Shown here piece after piece: positions 28,064-59,135 of a DNA stretch of 64,000 nt. The position numbers and the translations under genes were made by a program. Position 1 is the stretch's first letter; each line of letters starts with the position of its first letter. The DNA is taken from the NCBI GenBank assembly GCA_035299145.1, contig DATGWZ010000023.1, positions 681,801 to 745,800 on the forward strand, given 5' to 3'. This DNA is from Saprospiraceae bacterium (GTDB taxonomy: Bacteria > Bacteroidota > Bacteroidia > Chitinophagales > Saprospiraceae). The notes below the pieces were generated by a model. That model ran no database searches. It had not been told where the DNA came from and worked only from the letters and a program-made list of their open reading frames with translations.

Positions 28064-28079
28064 TGGCATTACTTTGGCA
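28064..28079 (+). promoter_or_regulatory. candidate promoter: sigma-54-like TGGCAT-N5-TGGCA, overlapping a sigma-A type TACTTTGG -7 box
   Basis: TGGCATTACTTTGGCA has GG and GC at the canonical -24/-12 spacing. The same bases also contain TAnnTTTG (28070-28077). Confidence 0.4.
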
Positions 28080-33516: not shown

Positions 33517-33551
33517 GCCCAATCGTTGGAAATGTTTTCCATTATCTGGAA
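33517..33551. promoter_or_regulatory. tandem operator/UAS pair (degenerate plus perfect TTCCA-N5-TGGAA)
   Basis: 33517-33531 GCCCAATCGTTGGAA and 33537-33551 TTCCATTATCTGGAA, in a 20-bp register. They lie in the only intergenic gap of the plus-strand glycosyltransferase arm. Confidence 0.55.
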
Positions 33552-33603
33552 AATCTAAAAAATAAAAATTACATAATAGATTGATATTCAATTATATAAA
33601 TAC

Positions 33604-33619
33604 TGGCACAGTATTGTAA
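33604..33619 (+). promoter_or_regulatory. TGGCAC box (sigma-54 -24-like; the -12 is poor)
   Basis: TGGCACAGTATTGTAA, 32 nt upstream of the ATG at 33636 and 60 nt from the centre of the proximal palindrome. Confidence 0.35.
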
Positions 33620-36124: not shown

Positions 36125-37498
36125 GTGTTTATCGTGGCAAAACAACAACTATTCACCATATTCATTGTAGAAGATGATCCTTGGTATGGTCAATTATTAA
36201 GACATCATCTATCGCTCAATCCAGATTATGACATCAGACTCTTTACCACAGCAAAAGAGTGTCTGTCTGAATTGTACCACCAACCCGACGTGGTTTGTAT
36301 TGATTTTGGATTGCCTGATATGAGTGGTGATAAACTATTGACAAAAATAAAGGCTGTCAATAATCAACTACCAGTAGTTGTCATCAGTGGTCAGGAAGAG
36401 ATTGCTGTTGCTGTGGATTTATTAAAATCTGGGGCCAGAGACTACATCATCAAAGATGATCACACCAAAGATATGTTATGGCGTTCTATCATAAATATTC
36501 GTGAAAATGTCCATTTAAAACAAGAGGTAGAATCATTAAAAGAACAACTTGAAACCAAGTTTAACTTTGAAAAAACTATTATCGGTCAGAGTGACGCCTT
36601 AAAAAAGTCATTTAGACTCATCGAAAAAGCTATACATTCTAATATTAATGTATCCATTACAGGAGAGACAGGCACTGGAAAAGAAGTAGTAGCAAAAGCG
36701 ATTCATTACAATAGCGAAAGGAGAAAAAAACCATTTGTCGCTGTAAATATGGCAGCAATACCTAAAGAACTAATAGAAAGTGAGCTTTTCGGACACGAAA
36801 AAGGTGCATTCACTGGTGCGCTAAATCAGAAAAAAGGAAAATTTGAAGAAGCAGATGGCGGTACATTGTTTCTTGATGAAATAGGAGAATTAGAACTCAA
36901 TCTCCAAAGTAAAATCCTTAGAGCTTTACAAGAACGTGAAGTGACTAGAGTAGGTGGCAATAGTAGTGTAAAATTTGATGTAAGACTCATCACTGCTACC
37001 CACAAAAACTTGGCAGATGAAGTCAAAAATGGTAATTTCAGAGAAGATCTTTATTTTAGGATCATCGGTCTTCCTATAGAATTGCCACCTCTCCGTGATC
37101 GTGGACAAGACACATATATTCTAGCAAAACATTTTATCGATGAATATGCTAAAGAAAATAAAGTCAAACCACCTATCTTGACCACGTCAGCAAAAGAAAG
37201 GCTTATTAAATACCATTTTCCTGGTAATGTTCGCGAACTCAAAGCCATGATGGATCTTGCTTGCGTCATGTGTGACGGTCAAGAAATCAACGAACATGAT
37301 ATCAATTTTCATAAGGTCAGAGACAATGACCACTTTCTAGTCGGCGAGAAGACCATGAAAGAATATACAGCTGATATCATTGCCTTTTTCCTAAAAAAAT
37401 ATGACAACAATGTGGTATTGACAGCAGATAAGTTAGACATCGGAAAATCCACCATTTACAATATGATAAAAAGTGGTGAAATCTCCTTAAAAAAGTAA
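36125..37498 (+). CDS. sigma-54-dependent response regulator (REC, AAA+, Fis-type HTH), NtrC family
   Basis: REC with VVCIDFGLPDMSG. Walker A GETGTGKE. ESELFGHEKGAFTGA (GAFTGA loop). C-terminal HTH LDIGKSTIYNMIK. The GTG start is uncertain by a few codons. Confidence 0.9.
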   Translation: MFIVAKQQLFTIFIVEDDPWYGQLLRHHLSLNPDYDIRLFTTAKECLSELYHQPDVVCIDFGLPDMSGDKLLTKIKAVNNQLPVVVISGQEEIAVAVDLLKSGARDYIIKDDHTKDMLWRSIINIRENVHLKQEVESLKEQLETKFNFEKTIIGQSDALKKSFRLIEKAIHSNINVSITGETGTGKEVVAKAIHYNSERRKKPFVAVNMAAIPKELIESELFGHEKGAFTGALNQKKGKFEEADGGTLFLDEIGELELNLQSKILRALQEREVTRVGGNSSVKFDVRLITATHKNLADEVKNGNFREDLYFRIIGLPIELPPLRDRGQDTYILAKHFIDEYAKENKVKPPILTTSAKERLIKYHFPGNVRELKAMMDLACVMCDGQEINEHDINFHKVRDNDHFLVGEKTMKEYTADIIAFFLKKYDNNVVLTADKLDIGKSTIYNMIKSGEISLKK

Positions 37499-37501: not shown

Positions 37502-38629
37502 ATGAAAATAAAACAGTTCCAAATTATTGATAATCAAGAGTATATAATCGAGCAAGATGATAATATAAATGTCGTTTTATGTTTTGGTAGCAAACAACTA
37601 TTGAATAACCAGAATGTGATAACTGATATATCCAAAGCATTTCCAAACGCAAATATAGCATACTGCTCTACCGCAGGAGAAATATATGATAATCAAGTCA
37701 TGGACAACAGTATTTCTGCTGTAGCTATACAATTTGGTCATACAAAGGTTCTTTCAAATAGCATTTCTATTGATCAATTTTCAAATAGTTTTGATGCAGG
37801 CAAAAGCTTAGTTTCTTGTTTTGATACGCAAGACTTACGGTATATTTTTGTATTGTCTGACGGGAGTAAAGTCAATGGAAGCGAACTCGTCAAAGGGATG
37901 AATGAAGTGATAGACGATCATATACCTATCACAGGCGGTTTGGCAGGAGACGGACCTCATTTTCAAAACACCTTGGTTGGACTGAATGAGCCACCGACTT
38001 CTGGCAAAATATTGGCTTTGGCGTTTTATGGTGTTAAATTAAAAGTATCACACAGCTCTATGGGAGGATGGGAACCTTTTGGTTTGCAAAGATTAGTAAC
38101 AAAATCTAAAGCAAACGAACTATTCGAAATAGATGGGAAAAATGCTTTAGATCTTTACAAAGAGTACCTAGGAAAATACAGTGAAGAATTGCCCGGTTCA
38201 GCACTTCTTTTTCCATTATCTGTACAACTCCATGATAGTGAAAATTCTCTTGTTCGTACCATTTTGTCTATTGATAATGAGCGCAAAAGCATGCTTTTTG
38301 CAGGCGATATCCCAGAAGGTAGCAAAGTTAGATTTATGAAAGCAAATTTTGATAGACTGATAGATGCTGCGAGTCAAGCCGCAAATGTATCAGTGACAGA
38401 TTTTAATAGTATAGAGCCTTCTTTAGCTATTCTTGTCAGTTGTGTAGGCCGCAAACTGATATTGTCAGATAGGATTGATGAAGAAGTAGAAGCCGTCAAA
38501 GATGTTTTGGGCAGTCATACTACTATTAGCGGATTCTATTCCTATGGCGAAATATCTCCTCTGTTAAAAGGCACTTCTTGTGAATTGCACAATCAAACAA
38601 TGACCATCACTTGTCTATCAGAAGAGTAA
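37502..38629 (+). CDS. FIST (N plus C) domain signal-sensing protein
   Basis: No TM or signal peptide. ILVSCVGRKL...GFYSYGEISP pattern recalled from FIST_C. 3 nt downstream of the response-regulator stop. Confidence 0.65.
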   Translation: MKIKQFQIIDNQEYIIEQDDNINVVLCFGSKQLLNNQNVITDISKAFPNANIAYCSTAGEIYDNQVMDNSISAVAIQFGHTKVLSNSISIDQFSNSFDAGKSLVSCFDTQDLRYIFVLSDGSKVNGSELVKGMNEVIDDHIPITGGLAGDGPHFQNTLVGLNEPPTSGKILALAFYGVKLKVSHSSMGGWEPFGLQRLVTKSKANELFEIDGKNALDLYKEYLGKYSEELPGSALLFPLSVQLHDSENSLVRTILSIDNERKSMLFAGDIPEGSKVRFMKANFDRLIDAASQAANVSVTDFNSIEPSLAILVSCVGRKLILSDRIDEEVEAVKDVLGSHTTISGFYSYGEISPLLKGTSCELHNQTMTITCLSEE

Positions 38630-38651
38630 TATCCACACAAAACAAAGTAAA

Positions 38652-41600
38652 ATGTATCATAAATTACTGAAAAAACAGATCAATAAGTTCCTAAATGATG
38701 ATCTACAAAAGGATGCAGAAATTCAGGAATTTCTTAAACATATCAATCAGTCATACCTATCCTTTGAGCGTGATAAAGATATAATGAATCATGCATTCAG
38801 TGTCAGTGAGAAAGAATTTCAAGAAGTAAACGAAAGTCTTAAAAAAGAATCTGAAGTAAGACAGATTACAATAGAAAAACTAAAAGAAGTTGTATTTCAA
38901 CTTGTAGATGAAGATCATTTTTTTGACAAATCTGAAAAGGATGATTTGTACAAAATTTCAGAATTTATCAACCTTCAAATACAAAAAAATAAAGGAACAG
39001 AAGAAAACCTAAAACGGACCATAAACTTATTCAAAACGCTATTAGCCAATCTCCAATCAGGTGTATTGGTTGAGAATGAAAATAGAGAAATCTTATTTAC
39101 CAATCATCTTTTTTGCAAAATGTTCGAAATACCGGCACCTCCAGATGCTTTGATAGGTGCTGACTGTTCTCAATCTGCAGAATTGAGCAAACATCTATTT
39201 TCTGATCCAGAAAGTTTTGTGTTATCAATAAATAAAATTCTTAATGAACAAATACCTGTTTACAATGAACTGATAGAAACAGTTTCTGGTCATTTCTATG
39301 AGCGCGATTACGTTCCGATCTTTATTGACAAGATATATAAAGGTCATTTATGGCAATACAAAGATATCACTGAAAGGGTCAATTACGAAAAACTCCTTCG
39401 CGAAAATGAAGAGCTAAATCGACTCATCATGGATACTGCCATGGATGCCATTACCCTGGCTGACACCAAAGGAGTTATCAGGTATTGGAATCCTGCAGCC
39501 GCTCAGTTATTTGGGTTTGCCAATGAAGATGCTATCGGAAGCAAATTGGCAGATACCATCATACCTATGAGACTTCGGGATGCGCATGAATCAGGCATGC
39601 AAAGATTTAATACAACTGGCGTAGGCAGAATATTTAACATGAGGCTAGAGTTACCAGCCTTACATGCTGACGGTCATGAGTTTCCAATAGAAATGTATAT
39701 CATAGGTTTTGAACAAAAAGGAGAGAAACTTTTTTGTGCTTTTATTAAGGATATAACTGAAAGAGTCGAAGCACAAAAAATTATTGACCAACAATTACAA
39801 CTGCAGGATTTACTCATCAATATATCATCTACATATATTAACATAGACCTTGATCAGGTCGAACACACTATAAATAAATCATTGCAAGAACTTGGCAAAT
39901 TTGTGGGAGCTGACCGGGCATATATTTTTGATTATGACTTTGAATTAAATACCACTTCCAATACTTATGAATGGTGCGAAGAAGGTACCACACCTGAATT
40001 TAATAATCTACAAAACGTTTCACTTGATTTTATGCCACAATGGGTAGAAAAACATAAGCAAGGTCTACCATTTTACATTCCCGACATGGAGTTACTTCCC
40101 TATGAAGGACCTGAAAGCCTTCGAGGCGTATTAGAGCCACAAGGAATAAAAAGTCTTATCACCATCCCAATGATAAGTAATAGTAAACTGATAGGTTTTG
40201 TAGGCTTCGATTCCGTAAAAGATAAACATGAATATTCTGAAAAAGAAATGAAGTTGTTGTCTCTTTTTGCCCAAATGTTGATTAATATATTCGAAAGAAA
40301 AAGAAAAGAAAACCTCCTTACAAAACAAGAAGAAAAATATCGTAATATTATAGCAAATATGAATCTTGGCTTATTGGAAGTGACACCAGACGAGACCATT
40401 ATTTTTGCTAATCAAAGCTTTTGTGATATGTCAGGTTATACAATTGAAGACTTGAAAGGAGAAAAAGCAATCAAATTTTTATTGTACGATGACGACCAAG
40501 AAGTATTAAACGAAAAGCTAAAACTGCGAGAAAAGGGTCAGTCAGACAGTTACGAAATAGCCGTCAAAAACAAGCAAGGTGAAATTCGCTGGTGGTTTAT
40601 CAGCGGAGCCCCAAATTATAATGATCGCAATGAATTAATTGGCTCCATAGGTATCCATCTAGACATTACCAATCAAAAAAAATTGGAAAAAGAACTGGAA
40701 AAAGCCAAACTGCAAGCTGAAGATGCATCTCGCGCCAAGGAATCTTTTCTGGCCAATATGAGTCATGAAATCCGTACACCACTTAATGCGATCATAGGTA
40801 TGATCAGAGAGTTGGGTCGTGAAGAACTGACCCCAAAACAAAACTCATACGTTAGCCATAGTGAGACAGCCGCAAGACACCTACTCACTATCGTCAATAA
40901 TATCCTTGATATGTCAAAGATCGAAGCTGGCGAATTGATTATTGATGCTAAGGAATTTAGCTTAATGTCAGTGATCGGAAATGTCATCAGTATCCTACAT
41001 TCAAAAGCACAAGAAAAGAAACTTGAACTTAATTACCATATAAGTCCTGATATCAAACCTGCCCTAATAGGCGATAGCGGTAGAGTCAGACAAATCCTTA
41101 TAAATCTAGTAGGGAATGCCATAAAATTTACCGATGCAGGCAAAATAGACCTTTCAGTAAATGTAAAACAAACCAATCAATATTTCCAACAACTAAGTTT
41201 TGAAATCAAAGACACAGGAATAGGTATGAATAAAGAATACCTAAATCAAATATTTAATAAGTTTTCGCAAGAAGAAGGGTCAGCCGCAAGAAGATACGAA
41301 GGTACTGGTCTTGGGATGACCATTACAAAAGAAATGATAAACCTTATGGGCGGAAATTGCGAAATACAAAGTGAAAAAGGAATAGGCACAACAGTAACAT
41401 TTAACCTTACACTACCTGTAGGTGACGAAAATAAACTGGTTGATAAAGATAGTTACCTTGTGGATGATAGCTTGCAAAATCTTAAGATTCTTTTGGTAGA
41501 AGATAATGAGATGAATAGCTTTATTGCATGTCAAAGTTTACATTATTTTGGGTGTATCGTAGATACTGCAAGTAACGGTATAGAAGCGATAGAAAAATTA

Positions 41601-42230
41601 GCAGTCCAAAAACCAGACCTTATTTTAATGGATATCCAAATGCCTGAAATGGACGGTATAGAAGCCACCAAATTTATTAGGGACGAAATGGCTATCTCTA
41701 CCCCAATAATCGCCTTGACGGCAAATGCATTTAAGCGCGACATAGATTTATATTTATCTATTGGTATGAATGATTATGTCACTAAACCATTCGAAGAAAA
41801 TGTACTATTTAACACCATTGCAAATACGCTAAATATTAAAACAAAAACACCAACTCTGACTAATATTTTGCAAAGCAAACCATCAAATGAGACACCATTG
41901 TATGATCTTACAAATATTAAAACATTGAGTCGTGGCGATCAGTCTTTTGTCAATAAAATGATTGAAATTTTTGTAGAACATACCCCAACTTCTGTGACTG
42001 AAATAAAAGTCGCTTTCGAAAATCAAGATTACTTGACGATCAGTAAGATAGCACACAGAATGAAACCAAGTATTGACAATATGGGCATTCATTTACTAAA
42101 AAATCCCATCAGAGAGTTGGAGTCAAGTGCCAAAATGGAAGTCGTGGATGATAAAAAGGTCGAATTATTAATAGAAAATATTGAAAATACCTTGGCAAAA
42201 GTGATAGAGGATTTGAAGGCAACAACTTAA
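38652..42230 (+). CDS. soluble hybrid sensor histidine kinase (coiled coil, PAS x2-3, GAF, HisKA, HATPase_c, REC, HPt)
   Basis: H-box MSHEIRTPLNAIIGM. N/G boxes LINLVGNAIKFT and DTGIGM...GTGLGM. REC LVEDNEMN...LILMDIQMPEMDG. HPt AHRMKPS. No TM helices. Confidence 0.9.
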   Translation: MYHKLLKKQINKFLNDDLQKDAEIQEFLKHINQSYLSFERDKDIMNHAFSVSEKEFQEVNESLKKESEVRQITIEKLKEVVFQLVDEDHFFDKSEKDDLYKISEFINLQIQKNKGTEENLKRTINLFKTLLANLQSGVLVENENREILFTNHLFCKMFEIPAPPDALIGADCSQSAELSKHLFSDPESFVLSINKILNEQIPVYNELIETVSGHFYERDYVPIFIDKIYKGHLWQYKDITERVNYEKLLRENEELNRLIMDTAMDAITLADTKGVIRYWNPAAAQLFGFANEDAIGSKLADTIIPMRLRDAHESGMQRFNTTGVGRIFNMRLELPALHADGHEFPIEMYIIGFEQKGEKLFCAFIKDITERVEAQKIIDQQLQLQDLLINISSTYINIDLDQVEHTINKSLQELGKFVGADRAYIFDYDFELNTTSNTYEWCEEGTTPEFNNLQNVSLDFMPQWVEKHKQGLPFYIPDMELLPYEGPESLRGVLEPQGIKSLITIPMISNSKLIGFVGFDSVKDKHEYSEKEMKLLSLFAQMLINIFERKRKENLLTKQEEKYRNIIANMNLGLLEVTPDETIIFANQSFCDMSGYTIEDLKGEKAIKFLLYDDDQEVLNEKLKLREKGQSDSYEIAVKNKQGEIRWWFISGAPNYNDRNELIGSIGIHLDITNQKKLEKELEKAKLQAEDASRAKESFLANMSHEIRTPLNAIIGMIRELGREELTPKQNSYVSHSETAARHLLTIVNNILDMSKIEAGELIIDAKEFSLMSVIGNVISILHSKAQEKKLELNYHISPDIKPALIGDSGRVRQILINLVGNAIKFTDAGKIDLSVNVKQTNQYFQQLSFEIKDTGIGMNKEYLNQIFNKFSQEEGSAARRYEGTGLGMTITKEMINLMGGNCEIQSEKGIGTTVTFNLTLPVGDENKLVDKDSYLVDDSLQNLKILLVEDNEMNSFIACQSLHYFGCIVDTASNGIEAIEKLAVQKPDLILMDIQMPEMDGIEATKFIRDEMAISTPIIALTANAFKRDIDLYLSIGMNDYVTKPFEENVLFNTIANTLNIKTKTPTLTNILQSKPSNETPLYDLTNIKTLSRGDQSFVNKMIEIFVEHTPTSVTEIKVAFENQDYLTISKIAHRMKPSIDNMGIHLLKNPIRELESSAKMEVVDDKKVELLIENIENTLAKVIEDLKATT

Positions 42231-42283: not shown

Positions 42284-42318
42284 TTCCAATAAGAAACATA
42301 AAATTCCATAATTTGGAA
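42284..42318. promoter_or_regulatory. tandem operator/UAS pair (half-site plus perfect TTCCA-N5-TGGAA)
   Basis: TTCCA at 42284-42288 (right half degenerate) and 42304-42318 TTCCATAATTTGGAA, in a 20-bp register. 107-141 nt upstream of the ATG at 42425. Confidence 0.55.
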
Positions 42319-42385
42319 TTTAAAACCTATCAATTTATTCCTATGTTATTGATAATGTGATTATTATGAAAGAGGATTGATTTTT

Positions 42386-42401
42386 GGCATACTGCTCATG
42401 T
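42386..42401 (+). promoter_or_regulatory. TGGCAT box (sigma-54 -24-like; no -12 GC)
   Basis: TGGCATACTGCTCATG, 39 nt upstream of the ATG at 42425. Confidence 0.3.
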
Positions 42402-42424
42402 ATTTACAAATAAAAAATAAACAC

Positions 42425-45400
42425 ATGAGACTCATTTTTATTATTCTATTAGCTTGGGTAGCCTTCTCCACCACATTGATTGCTGGTGGCGCACCTTCTA
42501 CCTACTTCAATATATATTTACCACCCAATAACGACCCTGTACAGCGCAATGTAGCGCTTATTGTCACGGCCATCTATGATGAAACAACATTTACCATTAC
42601 AGATGATGATGCGGATGGTGACAATGATGATACGGTGACGGGAACACTGAGCGCTGGTCAATCTTATGTACTCTACATCAAAGATAATGGTATCAATGAT
42701 GATGCTCAGTATGCTTCTGGAGGAGTACTAAAAAGAGATGGCGATTATTTTATTATCAATAGCTCAAAATTGGTTTTTGCTTCCATGTCCACGGATAGTG
42801 ATTGGCAACATGACTTTGTACCTAGTGTAAATAAGACATCCTTAGGTGGTAAATTTATCATTTATGCCCCAAAAATTACATCTTCTAAGCGTGATTTGAA
42901 TGTTTTTGCATTTGAAGACAATACAACTATTACAATATCCAAAATATCATCTGTACCAACAACTGCTACAGGGTATACAAACATAGATATTGATGCTAAA
43001 ACCATTGTAAAACAACGTACAATAAATCGAGGACAAGACATCATTCATCACTTTCAGGATGGCAGAGATGTGATGGAGACAGGAGCAACCTATATGATAG
43101 AATCCAATAAACCTGTATCTGTGCAATATGGTGCTTTATGGGCAAATGCTAGAGATGGCGGCGGGTACGTACCATCTTCTAATGGATCTTCTAGCGGAGA
43201 TCTATTCTATTTTGCAGTACCCTATCAGTCTATTGGCGAACAAGAAATAAGAATCGTGTCTTGGGATGATAATAACGCCGTTACACTTGAAAGATATGAA
43301 AATGGCAGCTGGATCAATATGAAGTCCTGGACAGTCAATCGTCTAAAGCCTGCTGACTGGATAGGAAAGAAAAATGGTAATGCGACTTATCCCACAGTGT
43401 TCAGAATTAGCTGTACACCTAATAAAAAGGTATCCGTATTTGAATGTAATTGGATGGAAACAGGTAGTCCAGGTACATCTGATATGGCATCAATGGTTTC
43501 TTCAGAAGCTGGAACAGATGCTGGCAAAGAGTTTTTAGTATACCTACTCCCTCCAGGAAATCAAAACAATGTTATAAATCCATTCACAGGTCAATTATTT
43601 GGTGGTAACTTTGCACATTGCTACATCTATGCAGGAGATCAAGCGGCAAATGTCACAATAAAGGATACTAAAACTAACGGATCGATTATCAATAGAACTT
43701 ATACTATCCAGCCAAATAGATACGTCGATGCCTTTTTTACATTGAATGAATGGAAGAGCATTTATAATGGAAATGGAAACCCAGATTCTGGACCCGATAG
43801 ACCCTATGTTTTGATAGAATCTAATCAAAATATTTCTGTTATGAACTCCAATACCAATGACAACTGGATGATGTATTTTGGGTCGTCACTTGAATCAGGA
43901 TTCTCACAAGTTGGTGATGCATCTCAGAATTCGGCTATACCTGGTGATAACATCACTTTTACATCTGTCATTACGAATGGTAGTAGCACTTTGACAAATA
44001 CAGAATTGCAAGTTGTCATTGGTTCTGGTGCCGTACCATCTTCATCTGAAGTTAATCTAGGCAATCAGAATATCCCAGGTGTCATTACATCTAATGAAAA
44101 CCAATCTACAATCACATTCAATAATGTACCAAACTTAGCTGCAAATCAACAAGTTTCTATCGTTACTGAATTAGTCATAAACCCAACTTTTAATAATGGG
44201 AATCCAATACCAAATAACACAGTCATTTCTATAGAATCTTCAGTAACTGGTCTTGTCAATGGTCAAGTGCAACAGTCAGTAATCACTGAAGGTATCCAAA
44301 ATAATTCAAGTAATCTATCTCAATTATTATTTAATCCATGCGCTACAGGTGTTTTGGGAGATGTGGCTACAGATAGCTGGAATATAGCTTGGGTAGATTA
44401 CAATAACGATGGGTGGGAAGATCTTTTTGTCACAGATCGTAATCCATCAAAACCCAATCTTTTGTTCACCAACAGTGCTGGTAATAATTTTTATAAAGCG
44501 ACCAATGGTCCACTAGTCAATTTAACAGAAAAAACAGTTGCTTCGGCATGGGGAGACTATAATAATGATGGTTTGGTAGATGTTTTTGTGGTGAATGCGA
44601 CAGGTACTCAAAGTAGATTATTCAAAAACGTTAACGGGAGCTATGTAGAAGTATCCAATACTGGACTAGATGTAGATCCACAATATTTTCATGGAGCTGC
44701 TTGGTTTGATATGGACAATGATGGTTTTCTGGATTTAATTGTTACCAATTATTTTGAGACAAAATTTCATAAAATATATCGTAATAATAAGAATGGCACC
44801 TTTACATCCCTTAAAGATAACCCTATTGCACTGGAAAGTAACAGATCCACAATGCCTGCTTTGGCAGATTATAATAATGATGGATTGGTAGATGTCTTTA
44901 TTCCGAATGGCAACGATAAGCCTAATTCTTTATTCAAAAATATAGGAAATGGTAATTTTGAAAAGATCACTCAAAGCGTACTTTCTGCCGCATCCCAAAA
45001 TAGTGTAGGTGCTTTGTGGGCCGATTATAATAATGATGGATGGGTAGATTTATATGTTTTAAATGCATCAAAACAACAAAATGAATTATTCAAAAACTTA
45101 GGTGATGGTAATTTTGAAAAAATAAACAACACTGCGCTTACTGAATCATTTGCCGACACCCATACAGCACTATGGCTAGATCATGACAATGATGGCGACT
45201 TAGATTTTTATATGTCAAATGATCAAGGTTCGAGTTTTTATTACATCAATAATGGGAATGACGATTTTACAAAAAAATTGGGTGAAATGGTAAGTTCAAA
45301 CTTTGGACATGCTATGGGAGCAGCTTCAGCCGATTATAATAGAGATGGACATATTGATATTTTTGTGGCTACACACACTAATGATAAAAATAAATTATTC

Positions 45401-47038
45401 TGTAATCAGTCTCATGAAAATAATCATTTTATCAATATTAAACTGGTAGGTACTTATAGTAATAAATCTGCTATAGGAAGCTCCATTAAAATAACTGCTA
45501 ATGGTCAGAGTCAATATCGTCAAGTGCTGCCTGTACAAGGATTGGGGAGTCAGAATAGCTTACGACAACACTTCGGTTTAGGTAATGCTACTACCGTTGC
45601 TACTATAGAAATAAAGTGGCCATCAGGATATGTTCAGATACTTAACAATATAGCAGTAGATCAGTTTGTCACCATTATAGAGGAAGCCGCAAACCTTGTC
45701 ACGGGATTTGCTTTTAGTGATGATAATGGTAATTGTACGTGGGAAGAAGGTGAACAAAAAATTGAGAATATTGCATTTACGATAGGATCTAATCAATCAA
45801 CATTCACATCCCGTAAAGATGGTATATTTGACCAGAGAATTGGAGCAGGAAATCATACAATAACGCTACAACCCAATGATTACTGGAGTCTAAACTGTTC
45901 ATCATCGGTGAATGTATCAGGAAACAATAACACTTTTAATATAAATCTGCCCCTGACAAAGATTGCAAATGGTGGTGATGCAGGTATCAGCTTTGGCGTC
46001 ACTGCTTGGAGAAGGGGATTTGCAAGCGAATCTATTCTTAGATATTACAATCAAGGTACTGCCAATGCGACAAATGCCAAAATAGAAGTAACTTACCCAT
46101 CGGGAATTGAACTGAAATCAGCAAGTATTCCTTGGACGGAGAAAATTGGTGATACTTATATATGGCAAATTGGCAATATCAATCCGGGAACAGATTTCAC
46201 CATCAATTTGCGCGATTCAGTAACTTTGGCGGTAACGGTCGGACAATTTTTGACACTAAATGCAAATATTATAACCACAAATTCAGATCTAAATCCTGCC
46301 AATAATACATTTACTGAAAATTTAGAAATAGTAGGCGCCATAGACCCGAATGACATCTTGGTTACACCGCGTGGTGAAGGCAAAGAAGGTTTTATAAAAA
46401 AAGACCAAACTTTAAAATATCATATCCGTTTCCAAAATGTGGGTACTTATGCAGCTTCTAGAATTGTATTGGAGAATCAATTATCAAAACACCTAGATTG
46501 GAATACTTTCAAAATAGAATCAGTAAGCCATGAAGGATATCACTATAGTATTGATGACAAAGGTTTATTAACTGTGAGGTTTAACAATATTGAATTACCT
46601 GACAGTACTAGCAATGAAGCGGAAAGTCACGGGTTTTTTATCTATACCATAAAGGCATTTGGAGATGTCAAGGGTGGAGAAAGAATTGAAAACAGTGTTT
46701 TAATTACATTTGATTATGAAGAATCTTTACAATCCAATGTAGTCGTAAATACTATTAAATATAATGGTAAACCTAATACAAAAAGCTTACATATATTCCC
46801 TAATCCTGCCACTGACTTGGTAAACGTTATAGGAGACGCTGGCGATATTCTGAAAGATCTTCCTTTATTACATACCATCAAAATATTAAACTTTGCAGGG
46901 AGCGTTATCAATGTAATTAACAATACTGAGAAGTATAATATTGATATTAATGTAAGCCATTTAGCGCCAGGTATTTATTATATAACTGGTTATGATTATG
47001 ACGGTCTTATTTATCAAGGGAAAATGGTGAAGATGTAA
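42425..47038 (+). CDS. ~1537-aa T9SS-secreted protein: four N-terminal ~110-aa repeats, 7 FG-GAP/VCBS repeats, an UnbV/ASPIC domain (CRTAC1-like), Ig-like/CARDB-like domains and a T9SS C-terminal domain
   Basis: Signal peptide MRLIFIILLAWVAFSTTLIAG. Seven xxDYNNDGxxDLFVxN repeats. KWPSGYVQIL UnbV-like segment. C-terminal LHIFPNPATDLVNVIG...GIYYITGYDYDGLIYQGKMVKM. I prefer the ATG at 42425 over the TTG at 42377. Confidence 0.85.
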   Translation: MRLIFIILLAWVAFSTTLIAGGAPSTYFNIYLPPNNDPVQRNVALIVTAIYDETTFTITDDDADGDNDDTVTGTLSAGQSYVLYIKDNGINDDAQYASGGVLKRDGDYFIINSSKLVFASMSTDSDWQHDFVPSVNKTSLGGKFIIYAPKITSSKRDLNVFAFEDNTTITISKISSVPTTATGYTNIDIDAKTIVKQRTINRGQDIIHHFQDGRDVMETGATYMIESNKPVSVQYGALWANARDGGGYVPSSNGSSSGDLFYFAVPYQSIGEQEIRIVSWDDNNAVTLERYENGSWINMKSWTVNRLKPADWIGKKNGNATYPTVFRISCTPNKKVSVFECNWMETGSPGTSDMASMVSSEAGTDAGKEFLVYLLPPGNQNNVINPFTGQLFGGNFAHCYIYAGDQAANVTIKDTKTNGSIINRTYTIQPNRYVDAFFTLNEWKSIYNGNGNPDSGPDRPYVLIESNQNISVMNSNTNDNWMMYFGSSLESGFSQVGDASQNSAIPGDNITFTSVITNGSSTLTNTELQVVIGSGAVPSSSEVNLGNQNIPGVITSNENQSTITFNNVPNLAANQQVSIVTELVINPTFNNGNPIPNNTVISIESSVTGLVNGQVQQSVITEGIQNNSSNLSQLLFNPCATGVLGDVATDSWNIAWVDYNNDGWEDLFVTDRNPSKPNLLFTNSAGNNFYKATNGPLVNLTEKTVASAWGDYNNDGLVDVFVVNATGTQSRLFKNVNGSYVEVSNTGLDVDPQYFHGAAWFDMDNDGFLDLIVTNYFETKFHKIYRNNKNGTFTSLKDNPIALESNRSTMPALADYNNDGLVDVFIPNGNDKPNSLFKNIGNGNFEKITQSVLSAASQNSVGALWADYNNDGWVDLYVLNASKQQNELFKNLGDGNFEKINNTALTESFADTHTALWLDHDNDGDLDFYMSNDQGSSFYYINNGNDDFTKKLGEMVSSNFGHAMGAASADYNRDGHIDIFVATHTNDKNKLFCNQSHENNHFINIKLVGTYSNKSAIGSSIKITANGQSQYRQVLPVQGLGSQNSLRQHFGLGNATTVATIEIKWPSGYVQILNNIAVDQFVTIIEEAANLVTGFAFSDDNGNCTWEEGEQKIENIAFTIGSNQSTFTSRKDGIFDQRIGAGNHTITLQPNDYWSLNCSSSVNVSGNNNTFNINLPLTKIANGGDAGISFGVTAWRRGFASESILRYYNQGTANATNAKIEVTYPSGIELKSASIPWTEKIGDTYIWQIGNINPGTDFTINLRDSVTLAVTVGQFLTLNANIITTNSDLNPANNTFTENLEIVGAIDPNDILVTPRGEGKEGFIKKDQTLKYHIRFQNVGTYAASRIVLENQLSKHLDWNTFKIESVSHEGYHYSIDDKGLLTVRFNNIELPDSTSNEAESHGFFIYTIKAFGDVKGGERIENSVLITFDYEESLQSNVVVNTIKYNGKPNTKSLHIFPNPATDLVNVIGDAGDILKDLPLLHTIKILNFAGSVINVINNTEKYNIDINVSHLAPGIYYITGYDYDGLIYQGKMVKM

Positions 47039-47063
47039 CAAAAGAAACTAATTTTTGAAAATA

Positions 47064-47102
47064 AAAGAGCCATCAGTAATAAAATACTTGAAGGCTTTTT
47101 TG
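47064..47102 (+). terminator. weak intrinsic terminator after the T9SS cargo gene
   Basis: Imperfect stem AGCC-TCAG / TTGA-GGCT followed by TTTTTTG. Confidence 0.35.
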
Positions 47103-47620
47103 TTTTAATCATATCAATTATGATCTAAATTTTTGTCATAGTAACTGATCCGCTTTATACTGGCATTGAAATAATGAATTGAAAATTCTAAATAAGCATT
47201 GCTTACTTGCCATACAGAAGCTCATTGATTATGGGTCTTTCTATATTTTTAAGTTTCGGTTTGTGTACTACAGATTTTAGTTTTATGAACGGTTTATGAT
47301 GTTTTTCAAAGTTCTGTGTTACTGAACTATATTAATTTCTGAATTGTAATTCAATCTTCAGAAAATTAAAAACAAAGGATCTAATATGCCATACATTCAG
47401 CACTTATAGTTCTGACAATTGGTAAACTCTGATTATGCGTTAGAACTTTGTAATGAGAAGCTAAAATGCAATAAATCAGCTATTTATATCCAAAAAGCGT
47501 AGCATCGCTACGGTTACAACGGAAAAATAGTCCGCCTTGGTGGATTCTGATTTTCAGACCTTGTCAAGCCAAAGGCATGAAGTTTAGCTTCGGAATTGAT
47601 TTTCTAAAGCATATTTCGGG

Positions 47621-47819
47621 CAATGTCGTTAAGTTAAGGTGTTTTTAATGTTTTTACCAATCCTAAATTGGTATCCACAAGCCGGTGTTTGTGGTTCCTT
47701 CATTATTGAGTGAAATCGTTCACTCAATTTGCTTTGCAACCATTCAGTCATCTTAAAATGGACTGTGTGACGCCATAGCGTTAAGGACTTCATAAATCTG
47801 TTTTAACTAAACGACATTG
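47621..47819. mobile_element. 199-bp MITE-like element (alternatively a structured ncRNA) with 17-bp terminal inverted repeats and a 10-bp flanking direct repeat
   Basis: Left TIR CAATGTCGTTAAGTTAA (47621-47637) and right TIR TTAACTAAACGACATTG (47803-47819) are complementary at 16 of 17 positions. An identical ATATTTCGGG lies at 47611-47620 and 47820-47829. There is no ORF inside. Confidence 0.45.
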
Positions 47820-48099
47820 ATATTTCGGGTTAAATCTAATGGTAAATTTTTATTTAGATGGTTGTAGTTTGTAACTGCCTTTTAGCTTTGCATTTTAATT
47901 AAATTGATCATAATCTTTTACTTTCGAAACGATAGTACTATCAAAGTATTTATCTAAATACACACAAAACTGACCTAAATATAGAGAAATTCATAATTGT
48001 ATGGAATCAAAGTAATAGATTTAGATCATAGCTTACCTTCGTGTTCATTTCATGAAAAATCCTTAGACTTATAATTCATAATAAAAAATCATTTCATCA

Positions 48100-49371
48100 C
48101 TACACCTTCCTAACCATCATCTTTTCTACTCTCGTTAGATACTTTCTATTATCAAAAGCAATCATAAATATCACCAATTGGTAAAAAAGTATGCCATAAT
48201 TAGACTCTCCGAAAATACCGAACTCTGTAAATGAATTGATAATCACAGGGATTAACATGCCTAGCAACATGAGTTTTATCTCTTTATTTTCCCTAAAGAT
48301 GCCGCGTAATGTAAATATCATCTGAAATATCACCAGCGTCAGTCCTACAAATCCTAAATTCATCAATACCTGCATAAAAGTATTATGAGTCATCTTGCCA
48401 GGATAAGTGTGTGTACTCTGAAAAAACTCTTTGTAGTCAATACGCATAAACCCAAAACCCAATAAAGGTTCTCTAGGCAATCCTTCACTGATAAGGGCTT
48501 TCCAGAAAGGTAACCTTCCTGTCATACTCATGACTTCTTCGAGTCTTTCTGTGTCTCCACCTTTAAGTACTACTTTCCAAATGGCAACTGGCGCAATGAT
48601 AAGCATACCCGCGATGATAAGTGCTTTGAGTTGTTTTTTGTCAGACTGACTAATATGAAAGTAAATAATTAACAAAGCTCCGATCAACGATGATCTCGAA
48701 CCTGTGGCATACAGGGCATAAAAAATGACGATTAATTTTACAATAGTCCATACTGTGTGATGCTTACGATATAAATCAAAAATCAAGCAAGCTACACCTA
48801 CACCCGCAAGCATACCGAGTTCATTGGGATTCATAATATACCCGCCAAGTCTTGCTTCTTCACCACCGTGGGTCAGCCTGTAAAATGTATCAGGATCGAC
48901 AAACATACCTACGACAAATATCAGAATAAGGATAAAAACCGTATTGCCCAATAAATTGTAGAGTTTGGTCGTATTGTTGGGAAAGTAGATATTTAATAAG
49001 GCTATACTTTTGACAAAAAAGTAACAAAATACCAGACTTTGCATCGTCATAAACCACTGCAACGCACTAAAACCTACATTTGTACTCCACAAAAAAGACA
49101 AAAATCCAAGACCAAGATAAGCAAAATACAATCTTGATGCCAATACATTCTTTGCTACCAAAGTATCTGGTGCACCATTATTTACAATTCGTCGGTAGAT
49201 TAGATAGGATCCTATCAATACACCCATGCGACCTACTACTTTGATGACTCTTGTGATGATAATATTTTCACTCCACGTAAAAAAGCCTGCCACCATTAGA
49301 AATAATAGGACAAATAACCATGTATTGATACTTTTCAGAAATTCTGCCTCATTAAAATTTTTATATCTCAT
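48100..49371 (-). CDS. O-antigen ligase/polymerase family (Wzy-like) membrane protein
   Basis: About 10-12 TM helices, ATGSRSSLIGAL motif in a periplasmic-loop context typical of the Wzy_C family. Confidence 0.7.
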   Translation of the reverse strand: MRYKNFNEAEFLKSINTWLFVLLFLMVAGFFTWSENIIITRVIKVVGRMGVLIGSYLIYRRIVNNGAPDTLVAKNVLASRLYFAYLGLGFLSFLWSTNVGFSALQWFMTMQSLVFCYFFVKSIALLNIYFPNNTTKLYNLLGNTVFILILIFVVGMFVDPDTFYRLTHGGEEARLGGYIMNPNELGMLAGVGVACLIFDLYRKHHTVWTIVKLIVIFYALYATGSRSSLIGALLIIYFHISQSDKKQLKALIIAGMLIIAPVAIWKVVLKGGDTERLEEVMSMTGRLPFWKALISEGLPREPLLGFGFMRIDYKEFFQSTHTYPGKMTHNTFMQVLMNLGFVGLTLVIFQMIFTLRGIFRENKEIKLMLLGMLIPVIINSFTEFGIFGESNYGILFYQLVIFMIAFDNRKYLTRVEKMMVRKV

Positions 49372-53934: not shown

Positions 53935-53950
53935 GTATATGATAAAGCCA
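53935..53950 (-). promoter_or_regulatory. TGGCT box (weak sigma-54 -24-like) inside the loop of an 11-bp inverted repeat
   Basis: The minus strand reads TGGCTTTATCATATAC, 40 nt upstream of the ATG at 53910. The inverted-repeat arms are 53927-53937 and 53953-53963. Confidence 0.25.
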
Positions 53951-54013
53951 TTTACATACCAAGATGTATTATATTGATAATTAATTACTTATGAAATGTT
54001 TGAATAGAATGTA

Positions 54014-54047
54014 TTCCATTTATTAGATACAAATCCAAATATTGGAA
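54014..54047. promoter_or_regulatory. operator/UAS pair (half-site plus ATCCA-N5-TGGAA) between wza and the wzc-like gene
   Basis: TTCCA at 54014-54018 (right half degenerate) and 54033-54047 ATCCAAATATTGGAA, in a 19-bp register. Confidence 0.5.
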
Positions 54048-54058: not shown

Positions 54059-54808
54059 TTAAAATGCGCCTATCAAAATGGCAGCAGATGTTGCAGAAGT
54101 TGCAATAGGAATGATGGTAGAGATTCGTTTGTCAAACTCTTTATTTTTCTTTGATGGAGCTATAATGATATCTCCTGGACGCAACTGAATATTGCGAGCA
54201 CCTTCATCAGAAGCAATGGTCAGGTCTATATTTGCTATTTTAACTTTCGGACCATCTTGTCGTAATACTTTAATACTCTTCAGATTTGCATAATACTCAA
54301 ATCCCCCAGCTTTAGCTACTAGTTCTAGCAACGAATTATTATCTTTATCTACATGGATGACAGCAGGATTTCTAAATTCGCCGAGCAATGTGATTTCTTT
54401 GTTCATCACTTTGACATCTACGATGGGATTAGCTATCCATTGACTGATTAGGCTTTTTATACTATCTTTCAGCATAGGTAATGTCATACCTTTGACCATC
54501 ATGGTTCCAATTTTTGGAATTTCTATATTGCCATTTGCATCTACCATCAACCATTTTCCATAAACTTCATTAGAATTATATATCCCATATACCGATCCTA
54601 TACTAAGCTCATCTTGTCCCCAAACACTGATATTTACCTTGTTGTCTATTTCGATGATGTGTTGATAATCAGCACGATATCTAAAAATACTATCTAACTT
54701 GATCTCTTCATTTTCTTTTTCTGGAGAAAAGTGAAATAGGTTTTGGGTTTTGCATGAATCCAATAATAAGATAATACCTAAAAAGAGTATAAATTTTAGA
54801 TTTCGCAT
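54059..54808 (-). CDS. wza: polysaccharide export outer-membrane protein (Wza family: Poly_export plus SLBB)
   Basis: Lipoprotein-like signal (LLLDSC). PKIGTMMVKGMTLPMLKDSI and LRPGDIIIAP motifs. Confidence 0.8.
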   Translation of the reverse strand: MRNLKFILFLGIILLLDSCKTQNLFHFSPEKENEEIKLDSIFRYRADYQHIIEIDNKVNISVWGQDELSIGSVYGIYNSNEVYGKWLMVDANGNIEIPKIGTMMVKGMTLPMLKDSIKSLISQWIANPIVDVKVMNKEITLLGEFRNPAVIHVDKDNNSLLELVAKAGGFEYYANLKSIKVLRQDGPKVKIANIDLTIASDEGARNIQLRPGDIIIAPSKKNKEFDKRISTIIPIATSATSAAILIGAF

Positions 54809-55267: not shown

Positions 55268-55283
55268 AACGAAGGTTATGCCA
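55268..55283 (-). promoter_or_regulatory. TGGCAT box (sigma-54 -24-like; the -12 reads TCGTT)
   Basis: The minus strand reads TGGCATAACCTTCGTT, 44 nt upstream of the ATG at 55239 and 60 nt from the centre of the palindrome. Confidence 0.35.
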
Positions 55284-55335
55284 ATTTACAAATAATTGAT
55301 ATACAGCTATATACAAAATAATAAAAAATTTTAAA

Positions 55336-55369
55336 TTCCATATTTTGGAATCAATTCCACATGAAAGAT
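55336..55369. promoter_or_regulatory. operator/UAS pair (perfect TTCCA-N5-TGGAA plus half-site) in the divergent receiver-wza / GH53 intergenic region
   Basis: 55336-55350 TTCCATATTTTGGAA and TTCCA at 55355-55359, in a 19-bp register. Confidence 0.55.
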
Positions 55370-55689
55370 TCTTGATAACTAAAAAAATCACCATAAAAAA
55401 CCATTCTTAAGTCTTTCAAGATCAAAAATCGTAACTTATCCAATGAAATGATTATTGGGTCGACACTTAAATTTACTTATTATGAGCTTTATTAACTGCA
55501 TTCTTAATCACAGGTGCCTTTTTACCTTAACTTATCCCATTTTTGGTAAATCCAATTAAACTATTCGTTCATAAAAGAATAAATAAATCCATTACTGTGG
55601 TCCAAAATAATCCATGTCAAAATGAACAAACATGCAAATATTCATATTGTAACACTCGTCTAAGCATAGCAAATTCACAATACCTTATC

Positions 55690-56748
55690 ATGAACAAACT
55701 TTTCAATTTTATCATCATTCTTTTGGCTGCCTGTTCTGAACCCAAAGAAGATATTAATTCAGTTTCAGACAACCTTGAAATACGGGGTGCTGACATATCC
55801 TTCCTTCCTGAACTTAGGAAATCTGGTATCACTACCCGAAATACTGCTGGTAATATAGAAGACATGCTCACAACACTTAAAGCTGAGGGTATGAACGTGG
55901 TAAGATTGCGTATTTGGAACAATCCTTCCAACGAACATTCTTCAATGGCAGAGGTCACTACCTTTGCTAAGGAAATCAAAGCTGCTGGAATGAAGGTGTG
56001 GATAACGGTGCATTACTCTGACTGGTGGGCAGACCCAGGCAAACAAAATAAACCGAATGCATGGAAAAATCTTCCGTTTCAAGTTTTAAAAGACAGTGTG
56101 TATCAATTTACAGCAAAAATTATAAAAGATATAAATCCGGAGTATATCCAAATAGGTAATGAAATCAATAATGGACTGCTATGGCCAGATGGTAATATTT
56201 CTAACCTAACTCAGATGAAAGAGTTGCTAGCAATAGGTGTAAAAGCTGTAAGGGACCAAAATCCCACTACAAAAATTATGATGCATTATGCTGGACACAA
56301 AGAAGCATTTGATTTTTTTGATAAAATTAAAGACCTTGATTACGATCTTATGGGTTTGTCTTACTACCCATTTTGGCATGGCAAAAACATGGATTCTTTA
56401 TCCACAAATTTCAAAATTCTGGGTGATACCTTCGGTAAAAACATTGTGATTGCTGAAACAGCATACCCTTTCACTTTTGGATTTAATGATGAAACTAATA
56501 ATGTGATAGGTTTACAAGAACAGATACATCCCGATTTCCCACCGACGGTACCAGGTCAACGAGACTTTTTATTTAAGGTAAGAGACATCATCGCTGATGC
56601 ACCCAAAGGAATCGGATTTTGTTATTGGGCACCTGAATGGGTTTCATTCAAAGGTAAAACAGCAACAGATGGTTCGTCTTGGGAAAATCAAGCCTTATGG
56701 GGCTTTGACAATAAAGCTTTGGCAGGTATTAAGGTGTTTAATCCTTAA
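55690..56748 (+). CDS. GH53 arabinogalactan endo-beta-1,4-galactanase, lipoprotein
   Basis: MNKLFNFIIILLAAC lipobox. GADISFLPE, VRLRIWNNP, IQIGNEINNG and IAETAYPF (the two catalytic Glu contexts of GH53). The ATG at 55690 is preferred over the TTG at 55543. Confidence 0.8.
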   Translation: MNKLFNFIIILLAACSEPKEDINSVSDNLEIRGADISFLPELRKSGITTRNTAGNIEDMLTTLKAEGMNVVRLRIWNNPSNEHSSMAEVTTFAKEIKAAGMKVWITVHYSDWWADPGKQNKPNAWKNLPFQVLKDSVYQFTAKIIKDINPEYIQIGNEINNGLLWPDGNISNLTQMKELLAIGVKAVRDQNPTTKIMMHYAGHKEAFDFFDKIKDLDYDLMGLSYYPFWHGKNMDSLSTNFKILGDTFGKNIVIAETAYPFTFGFNDETNNVIGLQEQIHPDFPPTVPGQRDFLFKVRDIIADAPKGIGFCYWAPEWVSFKGKTATDGSSWENQALWGFDNKALAGIKVFNP

Positions 56749-57866: not shown

Positions 57867-59135
57867 TTAATCTGGCATATTGTACTCCTTGATTTTACGG
57901 TATAAAGTTCTTTCTGAAATGCCTAACTCGTCCGCGGCATCTTTACGACGATTATTAAATTTTTTGAGCGCTTTGCGAATCATATCTTTCTCCATCTCTT
58001 CGATAGAAAGTATTTCTTCCACGTCTTCTGTGTCATTGTAGTTACTCCCTTTGCCAGGTAAGATGATAGGTCGGCTGTCATAAGCAGGATAATCTTCTTC
58101 TTCCATGTCTTGTGGCTTTCTATCAAAAACCTTCTTAAATACGGCATCTGTACTATATCCTTGCATGGATTTTAGTGCACCTAAATCTGGTAATGTAAGG
58201 TCATTGGCTCGTACCAATTCGTAAATAAGGGACTTCACATCACTGAGATCGCTCTTCATTTCGAGCAAGAATTTGAATAATATTTCTCTTTCTTGATAGG
58301 AAGATTCGCCACCTAGGTTAAATTCGCCACCTTTGCTCGGCAACAATCTGCTTTTGATATGTGGTACTAAATCTACCAATTCTTCTACATCGAGTTCTTT
58401 GGCTTCTGACAACACACTCAGCTGCTCCACCATATTTTTTAGCTCACGAATATTACCTGGCCATCTATAGTTTTCTATTAGTAACTTGGCTTCAGGTGTC
58501 AATGTAATAGAGTCAGATCTGTATTTTTCAGCAAAATCTCCAGAAAACTTTCTGAACAGCATGTAGATATCTTCTCTTCTTTCGTGGAGTGATGGAACTT
58601 TAATGGGCACGGTATTGAGACGGTAGTAAAGATCTTCTCTAAATCGTCCGGAATGAATTTTTTCTTCTAAATTGACATTTGTCGCTGCCACAATTCTCAC
58701 ATCCGTATTGAGTACCTTGGAAGATCCTACTCTCAGAAACTCACCACTTTCTAATATCCTTAATAAATATGCTTGCGTATCTAGCGGCATTTCACCTATC
58801 TCATCCAAAAATATCGTACCGCCATTAACCGTCTCGAAGTATCCTTTTCTTTCTGTCACAGCACCCGTAAACGATCCTTTTTCGTGGCCAAAAAGCTCAG
58901 AATTGATCGTACCCGCAGGTATTGCACCACAGTTGATCGCTATAAAATTGTTGTGTTTTCTAAGGCTCAATTCATGAATGATACGGCTGAAAATCTCTTT
59001 ACCTACACCACTTTCTCCTTGTATGAGTACAGAAAGATCAGTCGTTGCTACCCTGATTGCTGTATTGAGCGCTCTTTCCAGCAGTGGTGACCTACCGATG
59101 ATACCGAATCTTTGTTTTACGCCTTGAATATTCAT
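57867..59135 (-). CDS. sigma-54-dependent transcriptional activator without a receiver domain (AAA+ plus Fis HTH)
   Basis: GESGVGKE, ELFGHEKGSFTGA, C-terminal HTH LGISERTLYRKIK. Sits immediately upstream of miaB; the two are co-directional on the minus strand. Confidence 0.9.
   Translation of the reverse strand: MNIQGVKQRFGIIGRSPLLERALNTAIRVATTDLSVLIQGESGVGKEIFSRIIHELSLRKHNNFIAINCGAIPAGTINSELFGHEKGSFTGAVTERKGYFETVNGGTIFLDEIGEMPLDTQAYLLRILESGEFLRVGSSKVLNTDVRIVAATNVNLEEKIHSGRFREDLYYRLNTVPIKVPSLHERREDIYMLFRKFSGDFAEKYRSDSITLTPEAKLLIENYRWPGNIRELKNMVEQLSVLSEAKELDVEELVDLVPHIKSRLLPSKGGEFNLGGESSYQEREILFKFLLEMKSDLSDVKSLIYELVRANDLTLPDLGALKSMQGYSTDAVFKKVFDRKPQDMEEEDYPAYDSRPIILPGKGSNYNDTEDVEEILSIEEMEKDMIRKALKKFNNRRKDAADELGISERTLYRKIKEYNMPD

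Follow-up and report, generated by a model that had tools for sequence, protein, structure and literature searches.

Bacteroidota dominate particle-attached and floc communities. To our knowledge, pairs of matrix protein and polysaccharide are understood in molecular terms for very few bacteria, chiefly Vibrio cholerae and Pseudomonas, and we know of none that has been defined for the Bacteroidota. RemA of Flavobacterium johnsoniae contains a lectin domain and plays a role in gliding. In two sources, RemA is described as an adhesin and as a type IX secretion system (T9SS) cargo that interacts with the bacterium's own galactose-containing exopolysaccharide (EPS) and brings about aggregation (PMC8481357, citing Shrivastava et al. 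2012; PMC5445135). In Vibrio cholerae, the propeller of Bap1 and RbmC binds the Vibrio polysaccharide (VPS) directly while other domains face the environment, an arrangement likened to “double-sided tape” (PMC10102183; bioRxiv 10.64898/2026.08.03.742583). Here we describe a gene at positions 42425–47038 (forward strand) of a 64,000-nucleotide stretch of DNA from a Saprospiraceae bacterium (GenBank assembly GCA_035299145.1, contig DATGWZ010000023.1, positions 681,801 to 745,800), referred to below as the window, which encodes a large predicted T9SS cargo protein within an EPS locus. We consider it probable, at roughly 0.6, that the product is exported by the T9SS to the surface or matrix, that its gene shares one sigma-54 regulon with the Wzx/Wzy-type EPS genes around it, and that the protein serves as an EPS-binding tape.

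The gene has the same putative sigma-54 enhancer and promoter as the EPS genes, both in the window and in dozens of other species, which makes its product most likely the protein partner of the EPS in the biofilm matrix. As in the case of Bap1 and RbmC, a modular protein (whose secretion is predicted here) with a calcium-type beta-propeller is encoded between or beside two arms of an EPS cluster and is controlled together with the EPS genes, for which our evidence is that of sequence. The differences are that seven FG-GAP repeats and an UnbV_ASPIC domain stand here in place of an 8-bladed propeller with a beta-prism, that export would proceed through T9SS with a C-terminal sorting domain (CTD) rather than through the type II secretion system, and that there is a 470-residue head of an uncharacterised family as well as regulation through what we read as a true sigma-54 promoter. 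Binding of EPS is direct for the Bap1/RbmC propeller, whereas for the present protein we infer it. RemA is likewise described as a T9SS cargo adhesin of the Bacteroidota, from which the present protein differs in having a type A CTD and in its place within a putative EPS regulon, and it is not known to be linked to gliding. With CRTAC1/ASPIC proteins it shares FG-GAP repeats with the Dx[DN]xDG motif and an UnbV_ASPIC domain directly after them; unlike CRTAC1, it lacks an EGF-like domain and embeds the propeller in a protein of ~1,540 residues with a 490-residue head, an Ig-like stalk and a T9SS sorting domain. A literature search found no description of the protein or of the cluster.

A Proposed Sigma-54 Regulon at the EPS Locus

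The genome is 6.05 Mb in size with 35% G+C and encodes rpoN (397 bits); the window is part of a Saprospiraceae genome and shares 99% identity with the metagenome-assembled genome (MAG) UBA7687. The gene and the elements that flank it are as follows.

42284–42296, no strand: weak half-site TTCCAATAAGAAA, distal to the main dyad by 20 nt on its upstream side, left arm only (TTCCA ATAAG AAACA)
42304–42318, no strand: perfect dyad TTCCATAATTTGGAA (TTCCA-N5-TGGAA), putative enhancer, or upstream activating sequence, for a sigma-54 activator
42328–42354, no strand: AT-rich inverted repeat TATCAAT/ATTGATA between enhancer and promoter
42373–42389, forward: sigma-54-type promoter with −24 element AGGATT (GG at 42374–42375) and −12 element TTGGCA (42384–42389)
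42425–47038, forward: coding sequence of the 1,537-residue T9SS cargo protein, stop codon included
47058–47106, forward: hairpin and U-run of an intrinsic terminator (−19.4 kcal/mol on folding, z = −5.6, equalled in stability by none of 200 shuffled sequences)

An earlier note on this DNA had the gene preceded by a pair of operator dyads at 42284 and 42304. The downstream member is indeed a perfect dyad, whereas the upstream one has only the left half-site, although the promoters of orthologues repeatedly show a weaker distal site with this −20 spacing. Rather than an operator, the dyad is better read as the upstream activating sequence for the NtrC-type activator encoded at 36125–37498. The inverted repeat that follows it is a possible bending site, and an ATCAAT motif occupies the same interval at three of the other four promoters of the regulon (28074, wzz and REC), the 33636 promoter having ATTGATATTCAAT in its stead.

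At the promoter position the window reads AGGATT-GATTT-TTGGCAT, in which the GG is present and the −12 element is TTGG, such that the promoter is degenerate and its sigma-54 register in this window uncertain. The TGGCAT at 42385 was considered as a −24 box and rejected, for it aligns with the −12 element of close relatives once the promoters are anchored on the dyad; because the relatives show that arrangement, we take this TGGCAT for the −12 element and see a degenerate −24 element in the AGGATT at 42373. The open reading frame extends from 42377 to 47038, and the ATG at 42425 is the plausible start, since homologues align from residues 2–6 onward and the promoter elements lie inside the TTG extension. 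More than 100 orthologues have a length of 1,530–1,550 residues.

The strong hairpin and U-run after the stop codon argue that the gene is its own transcription unit, so that we read it as monocistronic, with a promoter and a terminator of its own. A consensus terminator scan did not list the hairpin at 47058–47106 because the loop exceeds the limits of that scan, and a sigma-70 consensus scan was equally uninformative. About 1 kb without an open reading frame (47039–48099) carries the terminator at its left edge and separates it from the convergent wzy end.

The same combination of dyad and box recurs at four other promoters of the locus, which also encodes the presumed activator.

27975–28078, forward: dyad pair (27975, 27995) and sigma-54-like box TGGCAT-N5-TGGC before the arm of kinase-like and glycosyltransferase (GT) genes
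33537–33618, forward: dyad and TGGCAC box before the second GT operon
36125–37498, forward: NtrC-type response regulator and sigma-54 activator, presumed dyad binder (Response_reg, Sigma54_activat, AAA_lid_14)
53947–54047, reverse: one-mismatch dyad (54033) and TGGTAT-N5-TGGC box before the wzz-like gene
55269–55350, reverse: perfect dyad (55336) and TGGCAT box before the REC-wza export arm

The whole 6.05-Mb genome contains eight perfect dyads, five of which fall within this 29-kb locus, where 0.014 would be expected (Poisson P ~5e-12); the remaining three sit in apparent coding sequence. All four composites in the genome of a perfect dyad with a TGGYAY box 30–85 nt later belong to the locus. 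The fifth perfect dyad of the locus, at 54505–54519, lies inside the wza coding sequence, where it may act from a distance as an enhancer of the wzz-like promoter or may have arisen by chance.

Conservation of the Promoter and Dependence on the EPS Cluster

We compared 80 loci drawn from different species, each with a gene for a relative of the head, of which 76 had enough upstream DNA to be scored; since the species are related, the counts are not independent of one another. In 27 of the 76 loci, a perfect dyad is found no more than 300 nt from the start, against a background of 0.0065 per 306 bp in the rest of the same loci, and a dyad with at most one mismatch in 50 (background 0.033 per 306 bp), nearly always at −109 to −141. 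When the orthologous promoters are aligned on the dyad, a GGCAY box appears ~69 nt downstream, and canonical sigma-54 promoters stand at that box in L025 (TGGCACGTCCCTTGCA), L048 (TGGCACCTGAATTGCA), L040 (TGGTATATCACTTGCA) and also L026. Close Saprospiraceae relatives have AGGCAC-N5-TTGGCAT (L009) and TGGTAT-N5-TTGGCAT (L011). In Fulvivirga and Cognataquiflexum, this gene, the REC-wza arm and the kinase-like arm each have a promoter with one perfect dyad.

The gene stands beside the activator and kinase genes and/or REC-wza-wzz-wzx-GT-wzy in approximately 32 of the 80 loci and is unlinked in the others, with the activator orthologue directly adjoining it in 19. Fulvivirga, Cognataquiflexum, Marivirga, Aquiflexum and others share the order enhancer-binding protein (EBP), kinase, this gene, REC, wza, wzz, wzx, GT and wzy, with a dyad for each arm. 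The enhancer is retained even when the gene moves elsewhere in the genome: the dyad is kept where there is no EPS, kinase or activator gene within 10 kb (e.g., L009, L010, L017, L024–L026, L034, L051, L059 and L062). A separate observation concerns the unlinked copy of Chryseobacterium aquaticum (L002, 9649–9729), which lies ~270 nt downstream of a tRNA-Leu(CAA) gene and has two one-mismatch dyads 20 nt apart; this arrangement may mark the insertion site of a transferred gene.

As a marker of the EPS cluster we used its distinctive kinase-like protein of 795 residues, Kin795. All five unlinked genomes first examined encode it at another place, and 44 of 50 further gene-carrying genomes have it, which brings the total to 49 of 55 genomes with the ~1,540-residue orthologue; several of the six in which it was not found are small MAGs. 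Among 300 genomes sampled evenly from the class, Kin795 occurs in 19 (about 6%) and the head family in six, and the three ~1,540-residue orthologues in that sample are all accompanied by Kin795. The co-regulation with EPS genes that had been proposed from the window thus gains support from a dyad conserved in position, a sigma-54 promoter ~69 nt downstream of it and co-occurrence with the EPS cluster, and we would expect the gene and the cluster to be co-expressed.

Eight loci encode variant proteins, and neither element of this association is found with them: Kin795 was found in 0 of the 8 genomes, and none of the loci scored has a dyad (L027 has too little upstream sequence). The absence of the dyad from variants in genomes that also lack the marker strengthens the link between dyad and cluster. 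The head is joined to HYR, Ig_7 and PKD domains in the variants of L027, L028 and L032. In these and in L003 (1515–5999), a head ~62% identical is followed by HYR, Ig_7, PKD_6 and a T9SS tail without a propeller, the two scorable loci have no dyad, and there is no EPS marker; in L003/L032 the gene has small genes for REC and Hpt as neighbours, and a TGGCAT box still stands 36 nt ahead of its start.

Two observations on the cluster itself bear mention. The Wzy-like polymerase (48100–49371, reverse strand) and its orthologues form the best conserved of the EPS genes, with 46–72% identity across families, which is unusual for Wzy and suggests a conserved repeat unit that could be recognised by a conserved binding protein. 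In the locus of Cognataquiflexum rubidum (L004, 5980–9866), compared with 37502–42230 of the window, the place of the stand-alone FIST protein is taken by an H-NOX (HNOB) protein, with an HNOBA-PAS hybrid kinase after it, so that the same output of EPS and adhesin appears to be wired to different sensors according to lineage.

Several findings weigh against the proposed regulon or against the protein being a partner of this EPS. The promoter in the window is degenerate (AGGATT-N5-TTGG), a scan of the window with the consensus TGGCAC-N5-TTGC gives matches at chance (40 against 39 expected), and 18 orthologous loci in cluster-bearing genomes have no dyad at up to one mismatch. A sequence search of the PDB to E 10 gives only CRTAC1 and YenB, and thus no detectable homology to the Bap1/RbmC propeller. 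The longer, propeller-bearing form is also found in five genomes without the cluster (L064, L072, L074, L075 and L085). Conversely, 15 of the 19 Kin795-positive genomes in the sample (~80%) lack the head family, and since most cluster genomes do without the protein, it has to be regarded as an accessory partner. It is the protein that depends on the cluster and not vice versa, as one would expect if it were an accessory factor of the matrix or surface and not a component of biosynthesis. Finally, the head is equally conserved (~62%) in the HYR/PKD-type fusion proteins of genomes without the EPS cluster. As the heads of these variants are still ~60% identical, the conserved role of the head is probably not recognition of this EPS, and the head is probably not a lectin specific for it.

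Some of these findings are also what the likeliest alternative would draw upon, namely that the protein adheres to something outside the cell, be it a surface, prey or the glycan of an alga or plant, and is switched on together with the EPS in a sessile programme without direct contact with it. Heads ~60% identical in genomes without the cluster, the absence of the protein from most marker-bearing genomes and the modular, adhesin-like architecture are all in keeping with this. We nevertheless judge it unlikely, because the ~1,540-residue orthologue is almost never found without the EPS cluster (49 of 55, with several of the six exceptions being small MAGs), and such dependence is hard to explain if the two products never interact.

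Domain Architecture and the Predicted Route to the Cell Surface

Domain calls were made with Pfam and NCBIfam profiles, and together with the AlphaFold2 model they give the following order along the protein.

42425–42490, forward: Sec signal peptide, residues 1–22, MRLIFIILLAWVAFSTTLIAGG, no lipobox Cys, read from the translation
42494–43894, forward: N-terminal head of four beta-sandwich modules (residues 24–135, 136–256, 257–365 and 366–490)
43922–44005, forward: DUF11-type repeat signature of an Ig-like linker domain, residues 500–527 (TIGR01451, E = 1.8e-7, 31.1 bits, cut-off 24)
44372–45454, forward: seven FG-GAP/VCBS repeats, approximately residues 650–1010, presumed 7-bladed propeller (FG-GAP_3, E = 8e-47, 158 bits)
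45470–45673, forward: UnbV_ASPIC, residues 1016–1083 (PF07593, 73.7 bits, cut-off 23.4)
46046–46753, forward: stalk domains DUF11 (residues 1208–1297; PF01345, 31.4 bits) and DUF7619 (residues 1307–1443; PF24595, 118 bits)
46793–47035, forward: type A T9SS C-terminal sorting domain (PF18962, residues 1457–1521 of 1537, 34.1 bits, cut-off 27)

This is the order that had been read from the translation by eye (signal peptide, modules, DUF11-like segment, FG-GAP repeats, UnbV, Ig-like domains and T9SS tail), and the count of seven repeats is borne out as well: by regular expression there are exactly seven Dx[DN]xDG calcium-binding motifs in the propeller, at residues 658, 711, 762, 815, 867, 919 and 970, ~52 residues apart. 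An eighth such motif lies at residue 60 in module 1 of the head. The AlphaFold model renders residues 2–16 of the signal peptide as a helix. The same genome encodes the T9SS machinery, scoring 1195 bits for the PorU sortase and 2031 bits for the SprA translocon, and the protein is taken to be a T9SS type A cargo whose secretion and CTD cleavage are predicted.

The last blades and the UnbV domain match the sequence of the human CRTAC1 structure (PDB 9etn_A, E = 6.4e-11), and by virtue of this match the CRTAC1-like label that the gene had been given is now a tested statement, even though no EGF family is among the Pfam matches and the C-terminal EGF-like domain of vertebrate CRTAC1 is therefore absent.

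A Conserved Head of Its Own Family

Modelled by AlphaFold2 with 30 homologues, the head (residues 24–490) reaches a predicted local distance difference test score (pLDDT) of 77.9 and a predicted template-modelling score (pTM) of 0.77, and it comprises four all-beta units with the same strand order. The four consecutive modules of the earlier note thus appear in the model as structural units at the starts that it named (FNIYLPP at residue 28, FIIYAPK at 144, FYFAVPY at 261 and FLVYLLPP at 370), whereas the sequence repeat that they were thought to share is not established: among the four modules, hhalign pairs only M2 with M4, at 64% probability, and the other pairs are not significant. Given such weak similarity between modules, they are described as four similar sandwiches and not as a demonstrable sequence repeat.

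No Pfam family matches the head, whether it is searched as a whole or within the full-length protein, and phmmer searches of the PDB with the head and with the C-terminal third found nothing meaningful. In Foldseek searches with the whole head, multi-sandwich proteins (the C-terminal domains of Vip3, HA3/HA70, the CUB domains of neuropilin, PHM and PNGase F-II) came up at a template-modelling score (TM) of 0.16 or below and were set aside as instances of a generic fold and not of homology. Module 2 alone gave no match at E ≤ 1e-3, the best being the fold of TM1070 and the Anabaena rhodopsin transducer at TM 0.44–0.47, and no well-characterised enzyme family was matched by the N-terminal modules in these searches.

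The nearest approach to a known family is PF17517 (IgGFc_binding), the N-terminal domain of FCGBP and of many bacterial surface proteins, which scores 28.1 bits on module 2 alone (cut-off 25.6) and gives no match when the head is searched entire or as part of the full protein. When the genome is scanned with PF17517, this gene alone comes up, at residues 138–289, with 26.7 bits over profile positions 9–158 of 297, and two of 25 distant members of the head family match it as well. The relationship is thus marginal and partial, and apart from this partial match the head stands as a family of its own.

An exhaustive HMMER search of 1.84 billion representatives (50%-identity clusters) found the head in only 187 clusters, many of the matches being shorter fragments; in full-length clusters the unit is nearly always complete, at ~490 residues, and N-terminal. 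In a metagenomic protein of 2,984 residues (P0193), the head is internal, at residues 1927–2378. Distant relatives join the head to FG-GAP, DUF4842, lamin-tail, PKD, cadherin-like, fn3, Big_9 and Cna-B domains and to T9SS tails; no catalytic enzyme domain was recognised among these fusion partners, which are display and stalk domains.

Across 68 species the median identity is 62.6% for the head, 42.4% for the propeller and 32.5% for the C-terminal stalk. Among 30 sequences, 125 of ~470 positions of the head are invariant, including six of nine Trp, 18 Asp and a Dx[DN]xDG motif. The N-terminus of a T9SS cargo protein is the end farthest from the membrane anchor, so the most constrained part of the protein would be its distal tip. 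By sequence, the head belongs to no characterised family and constitutes a sharply bounded, very conserved family of ~470 residues without a solved structure, which this analysis delimits.

Conservation of this degree is unusual for an adhesin (median 62.6%), and together with invariant clusters of Asp, Glu, His and Trp (e.g., SDWQHD and EQEIR) it could be taken as a sign of catalysis. The protein would then act on the polymer at the cell surface as a lyase or hydrolase, trimming it or setting it free, comparable to PslG, AlgL or the succinoglycan glycanases, with its catalytic site in the head or the propeller. Dedicated glycanases are common in EPS loci, polysaccharide lyases with a beta-propeller exist, and some distant members of the family also match the lambda-carrageenase propeller model PF25292. 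We find this more doubtful than an adhesin for an external substrate, however, as there is no match to a glycoside hydrolase or lyase family in Pfam, NCBIfam or the PDB, and Foldseek yields generic beta-sandwich arrays with no enzyme core (TM ≤ 0.47). The head's fusion partners, moreover, are domains of stalk or display type, a layout of Ig stalk and CTD is typical of adhesins, and we know of no catalysis in the CRTAC1/ASPIC family.

Proposed Mechanism

If the protein is indeed the partner of the EPS, the following sequence of events can be envisioned. A signal would be sensed by the FIST protein and the hybrid kinase, which would control the NtrC-type activator (36125–37498); once phosphorylated, the activator would bind the TTCCA-N5-TGGAA dyads ~70 nt upstream of the −24/−12 promoters. 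Sigma-54 holoenzyme would then be opened at five promoters together, four for EPS synthesis and export and one for this gene. The protein would pass the inner membrane by Sec and the outer membrane by T9SS, whereupon PorU would remove the CTD and the protein would be linked to the surface, in keeping with the PorU-mediated anchoring of T9SS cargo (PMC5445135), or released. Outside the cell it might act as a tape in the manner of Bap1/RbmC, tying the EPS to the cell or to a further ligand. By analogy, the propeller and UnbV domain are the more likely EPS binder and the head would face outward: the calcium-dependent propeller would hold the co-produced EPS, while the distal, conserved head would bind another conserved ligand.

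It is very improbable that the EPS instead serves as the anchor, with PorU attaching the cargo covalently to the polysaccharide of the locus in place of anionic lipopolysaccharide (A-LPS) to form a glycan-protein conjugate: T9SS cargo of Porphyromonas gingivalis is covalently linked to a specific polysaccharide, A-LPS (PMC5445135), and gene and glycan locus here are co-inherited and apparently co-regulated, but a Wza/Wzz export arm is typical of free or capsular EPS and not of an LPS-linked glycan, most cluster genomes have the cluster without the protein, and the many other T9SS cargo proteins of this genome (by their CTD matches) would need a general anchor.

Beyond the EPS-binding tape itself, a bolder proposal can be put forward, albeit tentatively and with less than even confidence. 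The EPS cluster, the sigma-54 switch and this orthogroup may together constitute the first defined module of EPS and matrix protein in the Bacteroidota, in which the propeller of a T9SS-displayed tape holds the polysaccharide of the cell itself, the head is a new four-sandwich, calcium-binding fold family with its own conserved ligand, and the sensors are interchangeable (FIST here, H-NOX in Cognataquiflexum). What makes the pair testable is that a conserved EPS cluster, a dedicated sigma-54 switch and one large T9SS protein that tracks the cluster through evolution are found together, and that genetics should be feasible, since there are cultured carriers (Marivirga, Fulvivirga, Aquiflexum, Chryseobacterium aquaticum and Flavobacterium restrictum).

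Other Genes Near the Locus

Two genes at the far side of the locus are of note. A second sigma-54 activator-like gene (57867–59135, reverse strand) lies just outside the EPS locus and is 36% identical to the AAA+ and C-terminal part of the EBP. A gene for a GH53 endo-beta-1,4-galactanase (55543–56748, forward strand) diverges from the REC-wza arm, with the perfect dyad at 55336 in the intergenic region common to both, and this galactanase might be part of the regulon or have the polymer as its substrate.

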